Program-made: the position numbers and the translations under genes
Source: Shigella phage SSP1
Length of the DNA: 64,000 nt
Sequence record: KY963424
Strand: one strand, 5' to 3'
Part shown: positions 45,586 through 63,226 of the stretch, one piece after another
Layout: every line of letters starts with the position of its first letter
Position numbering within the stretch: the stretch's first letter is position 1
The notes under the pieces: generated by a model
What the model saw: the letters and a program-made list of their open reading frames with translations, nothing else
Databases searched by the model: none
Told to the model about the DNA's origin: nothing

Positions 45586-45828
45586 TTACGATTCCTTGAG
45601 CAAAGAAGCAAGTTCAGCATAGACTTTATCTAACTCAAAGCCGATGCGAAGAGACACGTTTGTTTTCCGTTGTTTAAGTAACCACTCGGATATGTTAGGG
45701 ATGCCAGCTAATCTATGCGGTACCACCCTACATAGCTTTTCCGAAGTGTCGTAAACAGGAACTTTACGTTCTTTTACTGGGAACTTCCTTGTTTCCCATT
45801 TTTTATTCTTCACTGTCATTTCTAGCAC
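45586..45828 (-). CDS. Hypothetical protein
   Basis: 80-aa ORF overlapping the 3' end of the large helicase gene. Confidence 0.35.
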   Translation of the reverse strand: MLEMTVKNKKWETRKFPVKERKVPVYDTSEKLCRVVPHRLAGIPNISEWLLKQRKTNVSLRIGFELDKVYAELASLLKES

Positions 45829-48592
45829 CTAGCTCTGCCATTGCTTCATCATGCATATGTTTCTCCTCGTCAGTCATAAACTTATATGGGATTGGCATAC
45901 ACTCGATTTTACAATAAGTTCTGTACCAGTCTACAATATTCTCCGTATTCATATCCTTACCAATACCCATCATACCAAGATACATTCTCGCATATTTTGG
46001 GTTAGCACTCTGACCTGTTTTAAGGAAGAAATCTTTCTTTTTACCTTTCAGAGCTTCTATGAATGGTTTGATAGTGACATTTGAACACTTCTTAATATCT
46101 TCCCAGAACATCTCGTGCATTTTATGGAAAAATGCCGCTCGATCATTCGGTTTATCCTTGATATATTGTTCAACATGCTCAACTGTTACATCTTTAATAG
46201 ACTCAAGATGATAGTAGCGAACAAGAAGTAGTTTAGCTTCATACGCATCTGCATGGCGTGGAGCACAATAATCAGGAGTTGAATACAAAATAGCTTTGAT
46301 TCGCTCTTCCGTATATTCCTTCCCAGCACCTTCGATAGTTCCCCAGCTTTCACTGAAAATATCAATAGTTGCACCCTGATCAAGCAAGTAATAACGTAAA
46401 GTACTAGTATAGTTCCTAGATTCCAGCTCCCTACGACGTGCGTATAATTGCTGTGCTAACTCCAGCCAACCTTCATCAATGTTATATTGCTCAGAACCTG
46501 CGGAGAATCCACTCGTAGATTTATCAATAAAATAATAAATGTTCTGAGCGCCACGGTCGCGCCTGATTGCTTGAAAACGCATGTTTGGCGCTTGGTTGCT
46601 GGTTCTAGTAATAACGAATACGTTATCAAAATAGTTGAAGTCAACACCACTAGTTACTGATGGACTACATAATAAGCAATCAATTTGTTGGTCAATTAGC
46701 TCATTAGTTGTGTAATCCAGAATACGTCTAATATCTACATCAGACGTAGAGTTTGAGTGGATTTCCTTAACTAACGCACCCGTATTACGACGCAACGCCA
46801 TGCCCTTCTCATTCAGTTCATCTGGACCACAGTCAGATACTAGGATAGATTTCTCACCCATCTCTAGAGAAGTCTGAAGTGCAACCCAAATACTGGATTC
46901 ATCAGGGAACTCATAAGCATGAGCTTTTGACAGCATTTTACGGTGGTGATTATAAAATGCAACCGGTTTATCAAAATCAATTAGAGAACCGTAGGCTTCA
47001 ATAGTCTCAGCACTAATATCACCATCGGATAAGATTACAGTTTTAGCTGTCATGAGGATGTCACGTAGAACTTGAATACACTCGCGACGTTGTTTAACAA
47101 CTGGGGCGAATAATAGATCATTCATTACAGCGTCACATTCATCAATAAAGATGGTGTCTATTTGACCAATAAAACTTTTGAACTTATGCAAAGAGTGAAT
47201 AGTTGTGGACATACGATCAATAGCTCCACGTTTAAAGTTGAGCATATCTACAGACTTATCATATTGTCCTGCGCTAAATTTCTTAGCGTTTGAAGATACC
47301 AGCGCTCTAGTATTTGTAACTGCTAAAAAGTTGCCAGGAAGAACCCCTGCGTCCAGCCATTTAGTTACTGCCGTAGTTTTACCAGTACCAAGACTTGCCT
47401 TAACAAATGTTATATGGCCCTTTGGGGGCACAATGTTAATCTTCAGGTATGGAACTTCTGGTGGAGAATCCACTTCTAATTTCTTGAGTGGAACACCCTT
47501 CAGATTTAATGGAATCTCACGTTTAGAATTATTAACAAACGCTTTGAGAGCCTGCTTACGACCGTTATTAAAGTAATCTTGAATATTACGACTGTTATCT
47601 TTAGTTGCAATATATTCAGATAAAGCGGGTTTAATCTCACGTTCTAGCCATGCGAAATCAACACCATCCTCTAATGCTCTATGGTATAGTTTGGGGATAA
47701 TACGCAAGTACACCCCATCATCAGCTTCTTCCAATTCGCTGATGGTTTCTTCTACTTTATCAGAAGCAATCTTTTTGCCTTTAATTTGATCAAGTAAAGA
47801 ATAAAACTCTTCCTTAAACTCCCCTCTAGTTGTTTCATAGTCAACCAGATTATTAGGCAAATTTACCTTCGAACCTTTAACATACACCAGACGTGGCTTA
47901 CTCTCCGCTTTAAACGGATCAACAATACCATCGCTAAATAAAGGGTCGGCAAAATAGTGAAGCTGGACAGATGAATAATAAGCTAAGTCGGCAATATCAA
48001 AACCGAATTTTTGCTTACTACTATCATTGATAGACGTAAATAGGAACTTTAACTGACCTTGAGTTACCTTGACGTTAGATTCTAGCATTAAGTGCATTCG
48101 GATACCTGGTTTTAGGCCAGCCGAAGACGATGCATGAGCAATAAACCCTGCATCAAGAGGAAACATGTCCTCACTAATACTATTCAACATCTTAATAATG
48201 TGGCGGGCCATACCTACAAGATTAAACTTGTCGTACCCACCGGTATCTATGATACCATCCACGTCCATAGCAATAATATTGCTAGGGTTGGATACATTAA
48301 AGTTACCTTTCTTACGTCGCACATTATTTTTAGGTGCAAGACATCGACCTCGTACCGCAACGATATGAGGGTCAGACGTTAAACGTCTCATAAGTGGTAA
48401 CATTTCGGCAAGGCTTTGCGGGTCATGCTCTTCTATTACATCAAATTTGAAGGGCATAGAAGCTGGTTTACCTTCTGGATGCTCTTTCGAGAATCGTTTG
48501 GCAAAGGTATAATCTTCCGCTTTGATTTCTCGCCAAATACCTGTTGCTAAATCACGAGAAAATCCGGCGTGACCTTGGAGGATAGAAAACAC
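45803..48592 (-). CDS. Large replication protein: N-terminal primase-polymerase-like region fused to an SF2 helicase-type ATPase (origin-binding-protein-like)
   Basis: 929 aa; GTG start 48590-48592 after CAGGAG SD; acidic MDVDGIIDTGG segment; Walker A ASLGTGKTT, Walker B IFIDECD, further helicase motifs (SDGD, TSGVD, QAIRRDRG). Confidence 0.55.
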   Translation of the reverse strand: MFSILQGHAGFSRDLATGIWREIKAEDYTFAKRFSKEHPEGKPASMPFKFDVIEEHDPQSLAEMLPLMRRLTSDPHIVAVRGRCLAPKNNVRRKKGNFNVSNPSNIIAMDVDGIIDTGGYDKFNLVGMARHIIKMLNSISEDMFPLDAGFIAHASSSAGLKPGIRMHLMLESNVKVTQGQLKFLFTSINDSSKQKFGFDIADLAYYSSVQLHYFADPLFSDGIVDPFKAESKPRLVYVKGSKVNLPNNLVDYETTRGEFKEEFYSLLDQIKGKKIASDKVEETISELEEADDGVYLRIIPKLYHRALEDGVDFAWLEREIKPALSEYIATKDNSRNIQDYFNNGRKQALKAFVNNSKREIPLNLKGVPLKKLEVDSPPEVPYLKINIVPPKGHITFVKASLGTGKTTAVTKWLDAGVLPGNFLAVTNTRALVSSNAKKFSAGQYDKSVDMLNFKRGAIDRMSTTIHSLHKFKSFIGQIDTIFIDECDAVMNDLLFAPVVKQRRECIQVLRDILMTAKTVILSDGDISAETIEAYGSLIDFDKPVAFYNHHRKMLSKAHAYEFPDESSIWVALQTSLEMGEKSILVSDCGPDELNEKGMALRRNTGALVKEIHSNSTSDVDIRRILDYTTNELIDQQIDCLLCSPSVTSGVDFNYFDNVFVITRTSNQAPNMRFQAIRRDRGAQNIYYFIDKSTSGFSAGSEQYNIDEGWLELAQQLYARRRELESRNYTSTLRYYLLDQGATIDIFSESWGTIEGAGKEYTEERIKAILYSTPDYCAPRHADAYEAKLLLVRYYHLESIKDVTVEHVEQYIKDKPNDRAAFFHKMHEMFWEDIKKCSNVTIKPFIEALKGKKKDFFLKTGQSANPKYARMYLGMMGIGKDMNTENIVDWYRTYCKIECMPIPYKFMTDEEKHMHDEAMAELGARNDSEE

Positions 48593-49089
48593 AACAATAC
48601 TCCTGTATTGATTAATCGAAATCTTTTCTTTAGGACTATTCAGAAAGAATAGAACAACTATTACTACTATTTACGTAAACATCAATTATCATCAAACAAT
48701 ATGAATAAGTTATCATATCTCAGTGCTGTGCTCTCTTCGCTCATATACAGAATAGAACCTAGGTCATTGGCCGCTAAGCCGATTCTATTTGTCCTCACTA
48801 TCCTATTGGTAGGTGACTACTGTACGTGCCGCCATTCGCTGCTCTTTTCGTTCGCACCCCCATATAAAGCTCTGCCTATATAACGAGCTAAATATGCACG
48901 GTTTGGATTTACCTTTCCGAATTCAGGGTACACAGATCACTTAATTGAAGATTAACTAATGCAATATAAACACTAGTAATAGTTAAAACAACCCTTAATG
49001 GGGCAGCCTAACTGTTCCGTATCGCGGATTGTAAACAAGAAAAATTAGCAAAATCAATTTTTACTAATGTCTCTCAATTCAATATAAAT

Positions 49090-49118
49090 ATTATATCAAG
49101 ATTTTGGGCATCCTGCAA
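49090..49118 (-). promoter_or_regulatory. sigma70 promoter about 500 nt upstream of the large replication protein gene
   Basis: - strand: TTGCAG - 17 bp - TATAAT followed by ATTTATATTGAATTGAGAGA, like other early promoter leaders. Confidence 0.5.
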
Positions 49119-49212
49119 GTAAAATTTTCCGGATGGTGCTATCATTGGTCTTGAGTACGGGTAAAACCGAGCCAAAATGACTCGGTAATCAGAGTTCAGC
49201 CAATAAAAATCA

Positions 49213-49602
49213 TTAGTCATTTAATCCCGGAACATAGATCCCAACACGGTTTAATTGTTCTTTAGCTTCTTTGAGAATATCTGGAGTGTACTCCCAAATA
49301 TCATCTTCCACCTGTAAAAGATGGGGCGAACAACCGTCATCCGGCACACGGCATATGGCCAAACCACGTGGGTGGAACAAAGAGAAATTTAGGGCAACAA
49401 TTAAACCCATAGCAGACAATTCATTCCAATCCAATTCCCATTCCCCCGCGTAGCCGGATAGGAAAACACCAACACAGGGATCATCTATTTGCTGCTCCGG
49501 AAAAGTGAAGGAGGCTTGTCTTACCCCCAACCAACGTTGTAGCAGCTTCTCCGCACGTTTCACCAAACTAGGATCAATCTGACGCCAATATACTTGTTCC
49601 AT
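49213..49602 (-). CDS. Hypothetical protein, paralog 1 of tandem pair
   Basis: 129 aa; shares collinear motifs with the adjacent 142-aa ORF (IDD.PC.G ... W.EL..MGL..ALN..LF.P ... Y.P ... G...PGL). Confidence 0.5.
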   Translation of the reverse strand: MEQVYWRQIDPSLVKRAEKLLQRWLGVRQASFTFPEQQIDDPCVGVFLSGYAGEWELDWNELSAMGLIVALNFSLFHPRGLAICRVPDDGCSPHLLQVEDDIWEYTPDILKEAKEQLNRVGIYVPGLND

Positions 49603-49611
49603 TGTGCCCCC

Positions 49612-50040
49612 TTAGGCAGTTAAACCTGGGATCATATACCCGAAACGTCGAAGTTTCTGAATCCCCTCATTTACTTCTTCCGGTGAGTAAGACCAACCAT
49701 AACGTTCATTAACCTGAAAACCAGGAGATTCACTAGTTTTATAGTTAACAACGAGGCGATGCTTAGCAGGCATAAACAGCTTATAGTTTAACGCAAAAAC
49801 TAAGCCCATTTCATCTAACTCTTTCCAGCCGACAATCTCTTCAAGACCCTCCTCTACCTGAACAATTAAACCAATACAGGGAGCCTCATCAATATCATCT
49901 TTAAAAGCAAAGGAGATTTCGTTATTCTCACACCATATTTTCAAAGAGTTAATAGCCTCATTATACAGGCTAGCTGGGAGAGTACGCCAAAAGTTAACCA
50001 AAATTGGATTAGCTTCTTTAGAGAATACATTATTGAACAT
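49612..50040 (-). CDS. Hypothetical protein, paralog 2 of tandem pair
   Basis: 142 aa; see paralog 1. Confidence 0.5.
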   Translation of the reverse strand: MFNNVFSKEANPILVNFWRTLPASLYNEAINSLKIWCENNEISFAFKDDIDEAPCIGLIVQVEEGLEEIVGWKELDEMGLVFALNYKLFMPAKHRLVVNYKTSESPGFQVNERYGWSYSPEEVNEGIQKLRRFGYMIPGLTA

Positions 50041-58407: not shown

Positions 58408-59553
58408 ATGACTACTTTACTAAACCTGAACTGGGATCATACTAACGCTGACCTTTTCCTGGGAGATTCTCTCGGTATCGCAGATTATGTACGTGTAGCA
58501 CATCCAGAACTAGAACGTCTGGCACTTCTGCAACGCTCTCAATTTTGGACTGAAACTGAAATCAGTCTGGAAGCAGATAAGAAACAATGGCCTAATCTCC
58601 CGCGTGAAATTCAGGAAATTACACTCCTGAACTTAGCATGGCAGACTCAAACAGATTCCTTTATCAGTCGTGCTCCTGAAGCAGCTATTATGCCGCTTGT
58701 AAGTCGTCCAGAATTGGAAGGTATGCTCAAGCAGTGGAGCTACTTCGAAGATCTACATAGTCGTGCTTATAGCAATATTATTCGTAATGTGCTAACTGAT
58801 CCAGCAGAATTTATTGATTCTGTAACCAAAAACCAAGAAGCATTCGCACGCATCGCTGATTCTGTTGAACTATTCGATGAACTGTACCAGTTAGGTCAGT
58901 ATTTCATCGCAGTACGCGATCATCGTGGCGACAATACATATCCAGAAACTGAGTTCCCTGAAGTTAAACGTGAAACTCAGGCTAAACTATTAGACGCTTA
59001 CTTTGCGATCTATGGTCTGGAAGCAATGCAGTTTTACGCATCCTTTGCATGTACCTTTGCATTAGCAGAGAACGATATTCTGCAAGGTATTGCTAAAAAT
59101 CTGCAATTAATCGCTAAAGATGAAGCTCTGCACACTCAGATGTCCAAAGCAATCATCCAGATTATGTTCCAGCAGTTTGACAAAGACCTGGTGGATGAAG
59201 CAGTGGCTAAAGCACCAGCACAGCTCCTGAAAACTCTGAAAACTGAAATTGAATGGGGTCACTTCATTTTCAAAGGTCGTAGTCTGATTGGCTTGAATGC
59301 AGAACTTCTAGAAGAATATCTGTACTTTGTGGGGCGTAATGCATTTATGCACATCGGTGTAGAATGGCCAAGTAACCTGCCGGTAATCACCAAGAACCCT
59401 ATTCCATGGATCATGAACTGGTTGGATACCACTTCTTTACAGCCTGCTCCACAAGAAATCCAGATTGGTGCAGCATATCGTGTAGGTCAGGTAACTGAGA
59501 CCTCTACTGATACTCTGAAAGATCTGGGCAATGAATTTGGAGATTTCTTATGA
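58408..59553 (+). CDS. nrdB: Ribonucleoside-diphosphate reductase beta subunit (class Ia)
   Basis: 381 aa; ferritin-like fold with di-iron ligand pattern (E ... H) and radical tyrosine region; immediately followed by frd with 4-nt overlap. Confidence 0.9.
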   Translation: MTTLLNLNWDHTNADLFLGDSLGIADYVRVAHPELERLALLQRSQFWTETEISLEADKKQWPNLPREIQEITLLNLAWQTQTDSFISRAPEAAIMPLVSRPELEGMLKQWSYFEDLHSRAYSNIIRNVLTDPAEFIDSVTKNQEAFARIADSVELFDELYQLGQYFIAVRDHRGDNTYPETEFPEVKRETQAKLLDAYFAIYGLEAMQFYASFACTFALAENDILQGIAKNLQLIAKDEALHTQMSKAIIQIMFQQFDKDLVDEAVAKAPAQLLKTLKTEIEWGHFIFKGRSLIGLNAELLEEYLYFVGRNAFMHIGVEWPSNLPVITKNPIPWIMNWLDTTSLQPAPQEIQIGAAYRVGQVTETSTDTLKDLGNEFGDFL

Positions 59554-62780: not shown

Positions 62781-63226
62781 AGATTACCGAATTTAAAGGT
62801 ACTTATAGTTTCTTATCTAACTTTTATTTATCACCAATTACTTTCGAATACCTAAACGAGATATGGCATGCTGATACTGTAGAACATGCTTTTCAGGCTA
62901 TGAAATCCGACCAAAAAGATGATGTAGCTCATGTACTGCGCTCCCTAAATGCAGGTGTTGCCAAACGTAGAGGACGTAAATTAACTCTGCGCTCTGACTG
63001 GGATAAGGTAAAAGATGATGTAATGCTAGAGCTTTTACGGTTAAAGTTTGCAATCCCTGATTTGAGAGACAAACTGTTAGCAACAAAAAATGCAACTTTG
63101 ATCGAAGGAAATACCTGGGGAGATACATATTGGGGTGTTTGCCGAGGAATCGGGGATAATACTTTAGGAGTTCTTTTGATGCAGGTAAGGTCTGAAATTA
63201 AAAGAAGCTTACAGTTAATAAATTAA
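62777..63226 (+). CDS. NADAR-domain (YbiA-like, DUF1768) protein
   Basis: 149 aa; YSFLSNFY ... VEHAFQAMK ... W ... NTWGDTYWG ... GDNTLGVLLMQVR matches the NADAR signature well. Confidence 0.7.
   Translation: MKITEFKGTYSFLSNFYLSPITFEYLNEIWHADTVEHAFQAMKSDQKDDVAHVLRSLNAGVAKRRGRKLTLRSDWDKVKDDVMLELLRLKFAIPDLRDKLLATKNATLIEGNTWGDTYWGVCRGIGDNTLGVLLMQVRSEIKRSLQLIN

Follow-up and report, generated by a model that had tools for sequence, protein, structure and literature searches.

Large structured RNAs are rare in bacteria and their phages, and an RNA longer than 400 nucleotides (nt) with invariant loops is unusual; those found earlier proved to be ribozymes, ribonucleoprotein scaffolds or self-assembling particles. 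Here we describe what may be a new family of such RNAs, from the model phage T5 and its relatives. We analyzed a 64,000-nt stretch of the genome of Shigella phage SSP1 (sequence record KY963424; hereafter the window), which belongs to a T5-like phage of the genus Tequintavirus. Positions 48593-49212 of the window form a 620-base gap between genes that shares 97.9% identity with T5 (equivalent positions 58925-59544 of T5 record AY543070) and lies directly upstream of the helicase gene D2. This gap very probably encodes a conserved functional structured RNA of about 490 nt on the minus strand, which we call the T5 RNA. The structured RNA would be the 5' leader of D2.

RNA II of ColE1 is, like the T5 RNA, an untranslated transcript of about 0.5 kb that is made by host RNA polymerase within a replication module and carries stem-loops under selection, and it could serve as a model should the T5 RNA prove to act at an origin. 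Unlike RNA II, the T5 RNA continues into a protein gene and shows no sequence or Rfam similarity to it; a consensus scan, which is weak evidence, found no plus-strand promoter-like site for an antisense RNA I in 48593-49090. The repA/CopT leader of IncFII and the repZ leaders of IncI-alpha and IncB, through whose folding the translation of the initiator is set, share with the T5 RNA the position of a long structured 5' leader directly before a replication initiator gene. The T5 RNA differs from these plasmid leaders in its larger, closed multi-helix core, and the analysis of it revealed neither a leader peptide nor an antisense RNA, nor a conserved pairing over the ribosome-binding site. ROOL and GOLLD, which typically lie near tRNA genes, are also phage-borne RNAs of several hundred nt and unknown function with many covarying helices and conserved loops; the T5 RNA is however not homologous to them (their Rfam models are unmatched), lies upstream of a helicase gene and occurs in one phage family. 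The put RNA of HK022 and other antitermination RNAs, which act in cis on the transcribing polymerase, are leaders of phage transcripts and, again like the T5 RNA, take on their fold just downstream of an early promoter; put consists of two hairpins of about 70 nt. Lambda ori and P1 oriR resemble the T5 site in lying beside an initiator-like gene with an A/T-rich stretch nearby, whereas the T5 site has no iteron array and no DnaA box, and its repeats are arms of RNA helices.

We found no description of an RNA at the gap in Rfam or in the open-access literature. With Rfam 15, 48593-49212 had no match at E-values of 10 or below, and ten relatives had none of relevance at E-values of 1 or below; the single sub-threshold match, in relative L070 (28.7 bits, where the gathering score is 100), falls upstream of the leader. 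To compare the leader among relatives (given below by L numbers where needed), the regions upstream of the helicase gene were taken from IMG/VR, metagenomes and GenBank phages. The element occurs as two allele types, type A in the window and T5 and type B in many Salmonella and Escherichia phages. The two types are nearly identical over about 150 nt after the promoter and over the last 90 nt or so, and the middle stretch of about 300 nt is unalignable between them save for islands such as GGCTTAGCGGCC. Further versions are present in Klebsiella, Pectobacterium and one metagenomic lineage.

RNAalifold predicted 56 consensus base pairs from 11 divergent leaders, 35 of them with compensatory changes. 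Over the 49 pairs that make up eight helices, 91.5% of the alignment cells are paired, compared to 28.8-49.8% when the partners are slid by one to three columns. Changes on both sides affect 33 of the 49 pairs, versus 7 to 12 when slid and 18.5 +/- 2.3 in shuffles (0 out of 500 reach 33), and the covariation score is 0.547 versus at most 0.125 when slid. The structure is thus a property of the RNA. It is also specific to one strand: among the cells of the 49-pair set, 95 hold G-U or U-G and only 9 hold A-C or C-A, which identifies the sense strand as the one that folds. The minimum-energy fold reaches -129.6 kcal/mol on the sense strand (z-score -2.74) and -98 kcal/mol on the antisense strand (z-score -1.58). 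The excess of G-U pairs and the stronger sense fold together show that the folded strand is the one read from the promoter. The same signal is detectable between close alleles. Between the window and L015 there are 37 substitutions over 495 nt; in the minimum-energy fold of the window, six pairs changed on both sides and ten changed on one side still pair in L015, and six are broken, where about 0.9 double hits and about 0.3 that preserve pairing are expected by chance. These pair counts are limited by the MAFFT alignments. In short MAFFT sub-alignments the 3' strand of the CUUAGCGG stem fell into inconsistent registers, and an alignment of 34 sequences gave fewer consensus pairs than the alignment of 11, because near-identical rows dominate it.

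The element and its borders comprise the following features, in the direction of transcription (window coordinates).

49161-49185, minus strand: intrinsic terminator of the upstream operon, CCGAGTC-ATTTT-GGCTCGG followed by TTTT; annotated as rho-independent in AY543070 at 58952-58976.
49090-49118, minus strand: early sigma-70 promoter, with -35 TTGCAG at 49118-49113, a 17-nt spacer and -10 TATAAT at 49095-49090; it coincides with the promoter annotated in T5 (AY543070).
49037-49075, minus strand: P1, the 5'-terminal hairpin, in which a 1x1 internal loop separates 7 base pairs (bp) from a further 10 bp capped by a 5-nt loop, from single-sequence folds.
48988-49032, minus strand: P2, with outer stem ACAAUCC/GGGUUGU and inner hairpin CAGU-UAG-GCUG at 49018-49000.
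48655-48985, minus strand: central domain (about 330 nt), enclosed by a stack of three long-range helices.
48985-48966 with 48674-48655, minus strand: outermost long-range helix, corresponding to the CTATTACTA/TAGTAATAG repeat, core 48981-48976 with 48664-48659.
48962-48946 with 48694-48679, minus strand: middle long-range helix (helix 3).
48941-48925 with 48736-48722, minus strand: inner long-range helix (helix 4).
48751-48789, minus strand: CUUAGCGG hairpin, with stem AAUAGAAUC/GGUUCUAUU (48789-48781/48759-48751), inner stem GGCU/GGCC and invariant CUUAGCGG at 48778-48771.
48699-48718, minus strand: hairpin AUAUGA-UAACUUAU-UCAUAU (helix 8), whose register in the window differs from that in the alignment.
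48652-48636, minus strand: 3' hairpin CUAUUC-UUUCU-GAAUAG, which holds the first AGAATAGAAC copy.
48593-48635, minus strand: A/U-rich linker and Shine-Dalgarno sequence, with GGAG at 48603-48600, 7 nt ahead of the D2 GTG.
45803-48592, minus strand: open reading frame (ORF) of D2/T5.108 (obp), 929 amino acids (aa), GTG start, following the T5 annotation.

The terminator at 49185-49161 is the upstream limit of the element and lies outside the RNA. From the position of the promoter, which has an A/T tract upstream, transcription would start at about 49083, some 490 nt ahead of the D2 GTG, and P1 begins about 8 nt past this inferred start. When the first 52-56 nt were folded singly, a similar long hairpin formed in six leaders. 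Its shape is identical in the window, Pectobacterium L069 and Providencia L032, with a different sequence in the inner stem; L070 has extra small internal loops, and Klebsiella L030 has more internal loops still. The evidence for P1 is this comparison of shapes between single-sequence folds, and an alignment of P1 that included one misaligned sequence gave 0 pairs. P2 (helix 1) has 93.9% of its cells paired and a compensatory change from A-U to G-C in L084; its inner hairpin lies within the conserved AUACRGAACRGUYNGGCYG.

In helices 2, 3 and 4, 95.2%, 85.6% and 92.9% of the cells are paired, and three, six and seven pairs, respectively, are changed on both sides. At one pair of the CTATTACTA/TAGTAATAG helix, type B has G-C where T5 has G-U and the window A-U. 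Between phage lineages, the inside of the central domain has been swapped with its helices retained. All eight pairs of the CUUAGCGG stem (helix 6) change on both sides, with 94.3% of the cells paired, and in L015 the stem passes from AUAGAA/UUCUAU to UCAGAA/UUCUGA. The hairpin at 48699-48718 occupies the position of a hairpin with a conserved GUUGCCA loop in type B, Klebsiella and Pectobacterium phages. Its closing pair changes from A-U to G-C in L015, and of the type B phages L018 and L021 one has AAGUGG/CCACUU at this position and the other AAGGGG/CCCCUU. Loop sequences (CUUAGCGG, and GUUGCCA in the relatives) are retained while the stems of their hairpins covary. The core of the central domain corresponds to the G+C-richer patches of the gap (0.47-0.48 at 48750-48899, compared to 0.27-0.31 in the flanking stretches).

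A first-pass annotation of the window had noted these patches, together with a long non-coding gap, a promoter, repeated motifs and an inverted repeat, and had proposed a replication origin, an iteron cluster, or a structured leader or small RNA. The individual observations hold. The motif AGAATAGAAC has exact copies at 48646-48655 and 48749-48758, the only two in 64 kb, as well as a partial inverted copy at 48781-48789, and the inverted repeat CTATTACTA/TAGTAATAG lies inside an 18-nt repeat of 89% complementarity (48656-48673 with 48967-48984). As bare DNA, these repeats are not beyond chance: two copies of a 10-mer are no surprise in 620 bases, and a search of the window that tolerates one mismatch gives nine AGAATAGAAC matches versus 7.6 expected. 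They exceed chance because each is a helix arm that is kept in other phages through compensatory changes. The strands of the AAUAGAAUC/GGUUCUAUU stem are the second AGAATAGAAC copy and the inverted copy. On this comparative evidence, the motifs called repeats are arms of RNA helices and not iterons.

The idea that the AGAATAGAAC elements and inverted repeats serve as initiator sites on the duplex, in an origin made of iterons or protein sites, is thereby largely refuted, and we regard it as very improbable. The two exact copies are 103 bp apart and accompanied by the partial inverted copy, the region of the 3' hairpin is a palindrome identical in types A and B, and an iteron site here would adjoin an initiator-like gene. 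However, only two-copy repeat families are present, with no regular array of direct repeats, and Tandem Repeats Finder returned nothing in the region. The DnaA box TTWTNCACA is also absent from the region (the whole window has five matches versus 7.9 expected). The sequences of the motifs are not kept in relatives, yet their pairing partners change along with them, and the 95:9 ratio of G-U to A-C points to a single folded strand rather than to sites on a duplex. In Klebsiella phages the palindrome has an altered stem and spacer length (CUAUC-CUU-GAUAG); since pairing is kept with another stem and another loop length, an RNA hairpin fits better than a DNA operator with two half-sites.

Unannotated small protein genes could also have accounted for conservation of the gap, and the first-pass annotation had named a conserved one as one finding that would overturn its proposal. 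The 48593-49212 gap contains only short ORFs, three on the minus strand (38, 38 and 48 aa) and two on the plus strand (60 and 43 aa), and hypothetical proteins of 38-50 aa are annotated there in Salmonella phage vB_Sen_I1 and Escherichia phage MM-1. No ORF is common to the alleles, though, and the two sense ORFs of 38 aa are lost in the close allele L015. Pfam and PHROGs gave no match for the ORFs of the gap, and its substitutions follow compensatory pairing. The comparison of alleles thus reveals no conserved small protein gene and shows that the region lacks coding potential; that such genes explain the gap is hardly credible. The annotation of AY543070 likewise places one rho-independent terminator, one promoter and zero genes in it.

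The element is conserved in all enterobacterial T5-like phages that we found, as the first-pass annotation had suggested checking, and is not dispensable. Phages slur09 and L6jm are 98.9-99.5% identical to the window over the gap. Records that match the gap number 272 in Salmonella, 130 in Escherichia and 82 in Klebsiella, compared to 269, 130 and 81 that encode the helicase, and this agreement indicates that the element is not lost in nature. In Klebsiella, Pectobacterium and Providencia phages, what remains of a match to the gap is its promoter stretch. The 8-mer CTTAGCGG is found upstream of the helicase gene also in Klebsiella, Pectobacterium, Providencia and Proteus phages, and twice in Aeromonas phage TS3, and most instances are flanked by stems of differing sequence. 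In a strict stem search that allowed no bulge, 7 of 11 instances were significant (P-value < 0.05); those of Providencia, Proteus, L084, L069 and the second Aeromonas copy were not. Providencia leaders retain P1 and the CUUAGCGG hairpin, and by eye a long-range closing helix can be drawn between CUAACCACAUA and UGUAUGUGGUUAG, about 330 nt apart. More widely, most of the other Demerecviridae examined also have a comparable gap ahead of the helicase gene. It spans about 600-1600 nt in Proteus, Pectobacterium, Aeromonas and two Vibrio phages, blank or with doubtful ORFs; in Vibrio phage D260 a 240-aa gene lies directly upstream of the helicase gene instead.

We also scanned the IMG/VR viral collection and 185,579 species genomes with a pattern composed of the P2 motif, a gap and CTTAGCGG. 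The scan returned 30 T5-like contigs plus 2 further viral matches and 27 unrelated ones. All 29 extra matches were rejected by the nhmmer profile of the element, and the two viral ones are GC-rich coding sequence. By these scans, the element is confined to one phage family.

The product of the gene that follows, D2 (T5.108), is annotated as 'putative replication origin binding protein' and is a superfamily 2 (SF2) helicase. Its only Pfam match is Herpes_ori_bp at residues 389-533, within the helicase core. PHROG 3712 matches it over the whole protein, the NCBIfam family CyRepA1 of plasmid replication proteins matches residues 392-722 below its cut-off, and the nearest solved structures are herpesvirus origin-binding proteins. 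Biochemically, D2 was described as an 'unusual bipolar helicase' and proposed to be a replication initiation protein (PMC3632103).

Concerning function, the reading that we rank first, tentatively and at less than even confidence, is a cis-acting role of the RNA as leader of the D2 replication operon. Host RNA polymerase would transcribe the RNA from the early promoter and, with no intervening terminator, continue into D2. P1 would protect the 5' end of the transcript; stabilising hairpins act at the extreme 5' end of transcripts. The compact fold may shield the long untranslated stretch from Rho and RNases, as the RNA is G-rich and C-poor, which disfavours loading of Rho. The conserved loops could bind a phage or host factor that sets the amount of D2. 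In T5-type phages neither a terminator nor a second promoter separates the RNA from D2, and a terminator scan of the minus strand from the promoter to the D2 GTG returned zero intrinsic terminators. Most of the remaining probability is shared by an origin-linked and a trans-acting role, both compatible with the same structure.

Several observations weigh against a leader that acts in cis, or against parts of the structural model and its extension to distant relatives. A conserved pairing that hides the ribosome-binding site was not found in the consensus folds; RNAalifold proposed that UUCUUGU pairs with ACAGGAG, with weak covariation and in competition with P1. In Proteus phage Stubb a second promoter sits 36 nt before the helicase gene, which weighs against a purely cis role, and in Aeromonas phage TS3 a terminator-like hairpin (CCTAGCC...GGCTAGG, then ATTTTTT) can be seen by eye about 85 nt before the ATG. 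As for the model, P2 has two competing local forms, with an alternative pairing in the 34-sequence alignment, the interior of the central domain is modelled only in part, and the minimum-energy z-scores of the relatives are modest (-0.8 to -4.3). In Proteus, Providencia and Aeromonas, homology to the T5 RNA is suggested by the CUUAGCGG hairpin and the architecture; a single CUUAGCGG stem from these phages, in Aeromonas, passed the shuffle test, and the nhmmer profile had no match in the Providencia, Proteus, Aeromonas and Vibrio regions. Finally, no RNA-seq or transcription-start mapping of T5 was found in the open-access literature, and transcription of the RNA and its 5' and 3' ends are inferred.

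Some of these observations would suit an independent non-coding RNA that processing or termination frees from the D2 transcript and that acts in trans as a scaffold, a decoy or a component of a ribonucleoprotein, for example against host defence or in the assembly of the virion or replisome. Its position beside D2 would then be mere conserved gene order. About 430 structured nt with loops invariant across genera are more than known translational operators need, in Proteus phages the RNA and the helicase gene each have a perfect promoter of their own, and the hairpin of TS3 would separate RNA and gene. Moreover, an optional hairpin insertion of 97 nt between P1 and P2, present in 51 genomes, behaves like the expansion segment of a structured RNA. 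Nevertheless, we consider a role in trans unlikely, given that T5-type phages have no terminator or second promoter between the RNA and D2. The RNA was never found apart from the helicase gene, pattern scans returned only T5-like phages and chance matches, and no partner or target of such an RNA is known.

A second alternative accepts the RNA structure and makes the transcript part of the primary replication origin of T5, where it would form a persistent RNA-DNA hybrid or primer, or open the A/T-rich stretch beside D2, with the fold directing hybrid formation or recruiting D2 or polymerase, as the fold of ColE1 RNA II does. Origins commonly lie beside or inside initiator genes and are activated by transcription. 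D2 is the only UL9/CyRepA-like initiator-type helicase of the phage, the RNA stays beside the helicase gene even where this gene apparently has its own promoter, and low-G+C stretches (27-31%) surround the G+C-richer core. In the 121.75-kb T5 genome the element occupies 58.9-59.5 kb (48.5%), and older electron microscopy, as cited in bioRxiv 10.1101/866236, placed T5 origins near the genome centre. On the other hand, mapping of the T5 origin has been no more than coarse, and from a recombineering study it was inferred that replication is mainly unidirectional and starts at one end of the genome (PMC10055335). In the window, GC skew tracks only the direction of transcription, with no turning point at the gap. 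Sequence-specific binding of an origin by D2 has never been shown, its Pfam match being to the helicase core only. An arrangement of G-runs and C-runs as in ColE1 was not identified, although no systematic search was made for this feature. Overall, an origin-linked role appears doubtful, at a level similar to that of a role in trans. It is equally improbable, though conceivable, that the rapidly exchanged central domain is a lineage-specific determinant matched to its own D2 in the RNA component of the primary origin. If so, a principle like that of RNA II would operate in a large lytic phage with a herpesvirus-type initiator.

The genome of T5, a classical model phage, has been publicly available for two decades, yet hundreds of records leave the gap empty or place spurious small ORFs in it; the hypothetical small proteins can be removed from these records. 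The RNA adjoins an initiator-type helicase at the genome centre and bears on the site and mechanism of T5 replication initiation. Phage engineers should leave this conserved element intact, and the natural swaps between type A, type B and Klebsiella-type alleles can be used for structure-function work.

The leaders of several relatives carry insertions or duplications. In H8, MM-1, Kenya-K15 and others, an HNH homing-endonuclease gene lies between the T5.107 homologue and the RNA, at the following sites of the upstream stretch.

L005, L014, L017 and L025, about 1-500: HNH insertion.
L088, 1136-1588: HNH insertion.
L089, 1136-1588: HNH insertion.

The insertion brings its own promoter, which replaces the usual one, and the transcribed sequence resumes at the same GAGAGAC; despite the swap of promoters, these relatives keep the RNA from the first helix onward. 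L017 carries two promoters, and its P1 is duplicated. The identity of types A and B over about the first 150 nt of the RNA might stem from co-conversion during homing. The 97-nt hairpin insertion lies in the linker between P1 and P2 (window equivalent about 49036/49035; for example L013, L020 and L034) and is flanked by duplicated TTTTTCTT. It is found in leaders of both types, once per genome in 51 phage records, with 90-100% identity. With this single copy, it resembles an optional expansion segment more than a mobile element present in many copies. The gap of Vibrio phage PG07 (L039, about 1430-1610) contains a tandem duplication of about 110 nt, with GACTATCACTTTGTAGCCTCAATCCTCGGATTGTGTGAGTCAGTTAACTTCTGTCG present twice.

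In Aeromonas phage TS3 (L040, 219-1808) the helicase gene is preceded by an unannotated 1.6-kb gap with two CTTAGCGG hairpins. The features of this gap suggest a larger, separately terminated RNA or two tandem RNA modules. In Proteus phage Stubb (L036), two perfect sigma-70 promoters (12/12 matches; 1205-1233 and 1935-1964) bracket an 'empty' region of about 700 nt, where the depositors annotated doubtful small ORFs on both strands.

Some likenesses to other factors and RNAs were dropped. The anti-retron factor 'Rad' of T5 is a protein in the tRNA region. Likeness to the P4 strand of RNase P or to the S element of group I introns, an anti-Shine-Dalgarno mimic (CCUCCUUA, in two Pectobacterium-type leaders) and a mimic of the tRNA 3' end were either unconserved or without Rfam support. 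The window contains no tRNA or tmRNA, and the nhmmer profile detects the element there as a single copy.

The promoter sequence alone (49068-49128) matches other sites in distant T5-like phages, including inside or beside 'DNA helicase' genes of Klebsiella phages and in the tRNA region of Proteus phage PL1, and from these matches it appears to be a reused early-promoter cassette. The PL1 match was rejected as a relative of the element, being merely a similar promoter sited elsewhere. The T5 promoter P-N25 is annotated about 3.5 kb from the element (63043-63117 of the T5 record), beyond D2 and hegI. The latter, an HNH gene annotated after D2 in T5, is missing from the ORF table of the window and from the annotation of slur09. 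All genes around the gap are on the minus strand, including the homologue of T5.107 (49213-49602) that flanks it opposite D2. This homologue matches DUF7415 in two stretches and is a paralogue of the next upstream gene (49612-50040, minus strand), as indicated by second tblastn hits with about 31% identity over about 125 aa.

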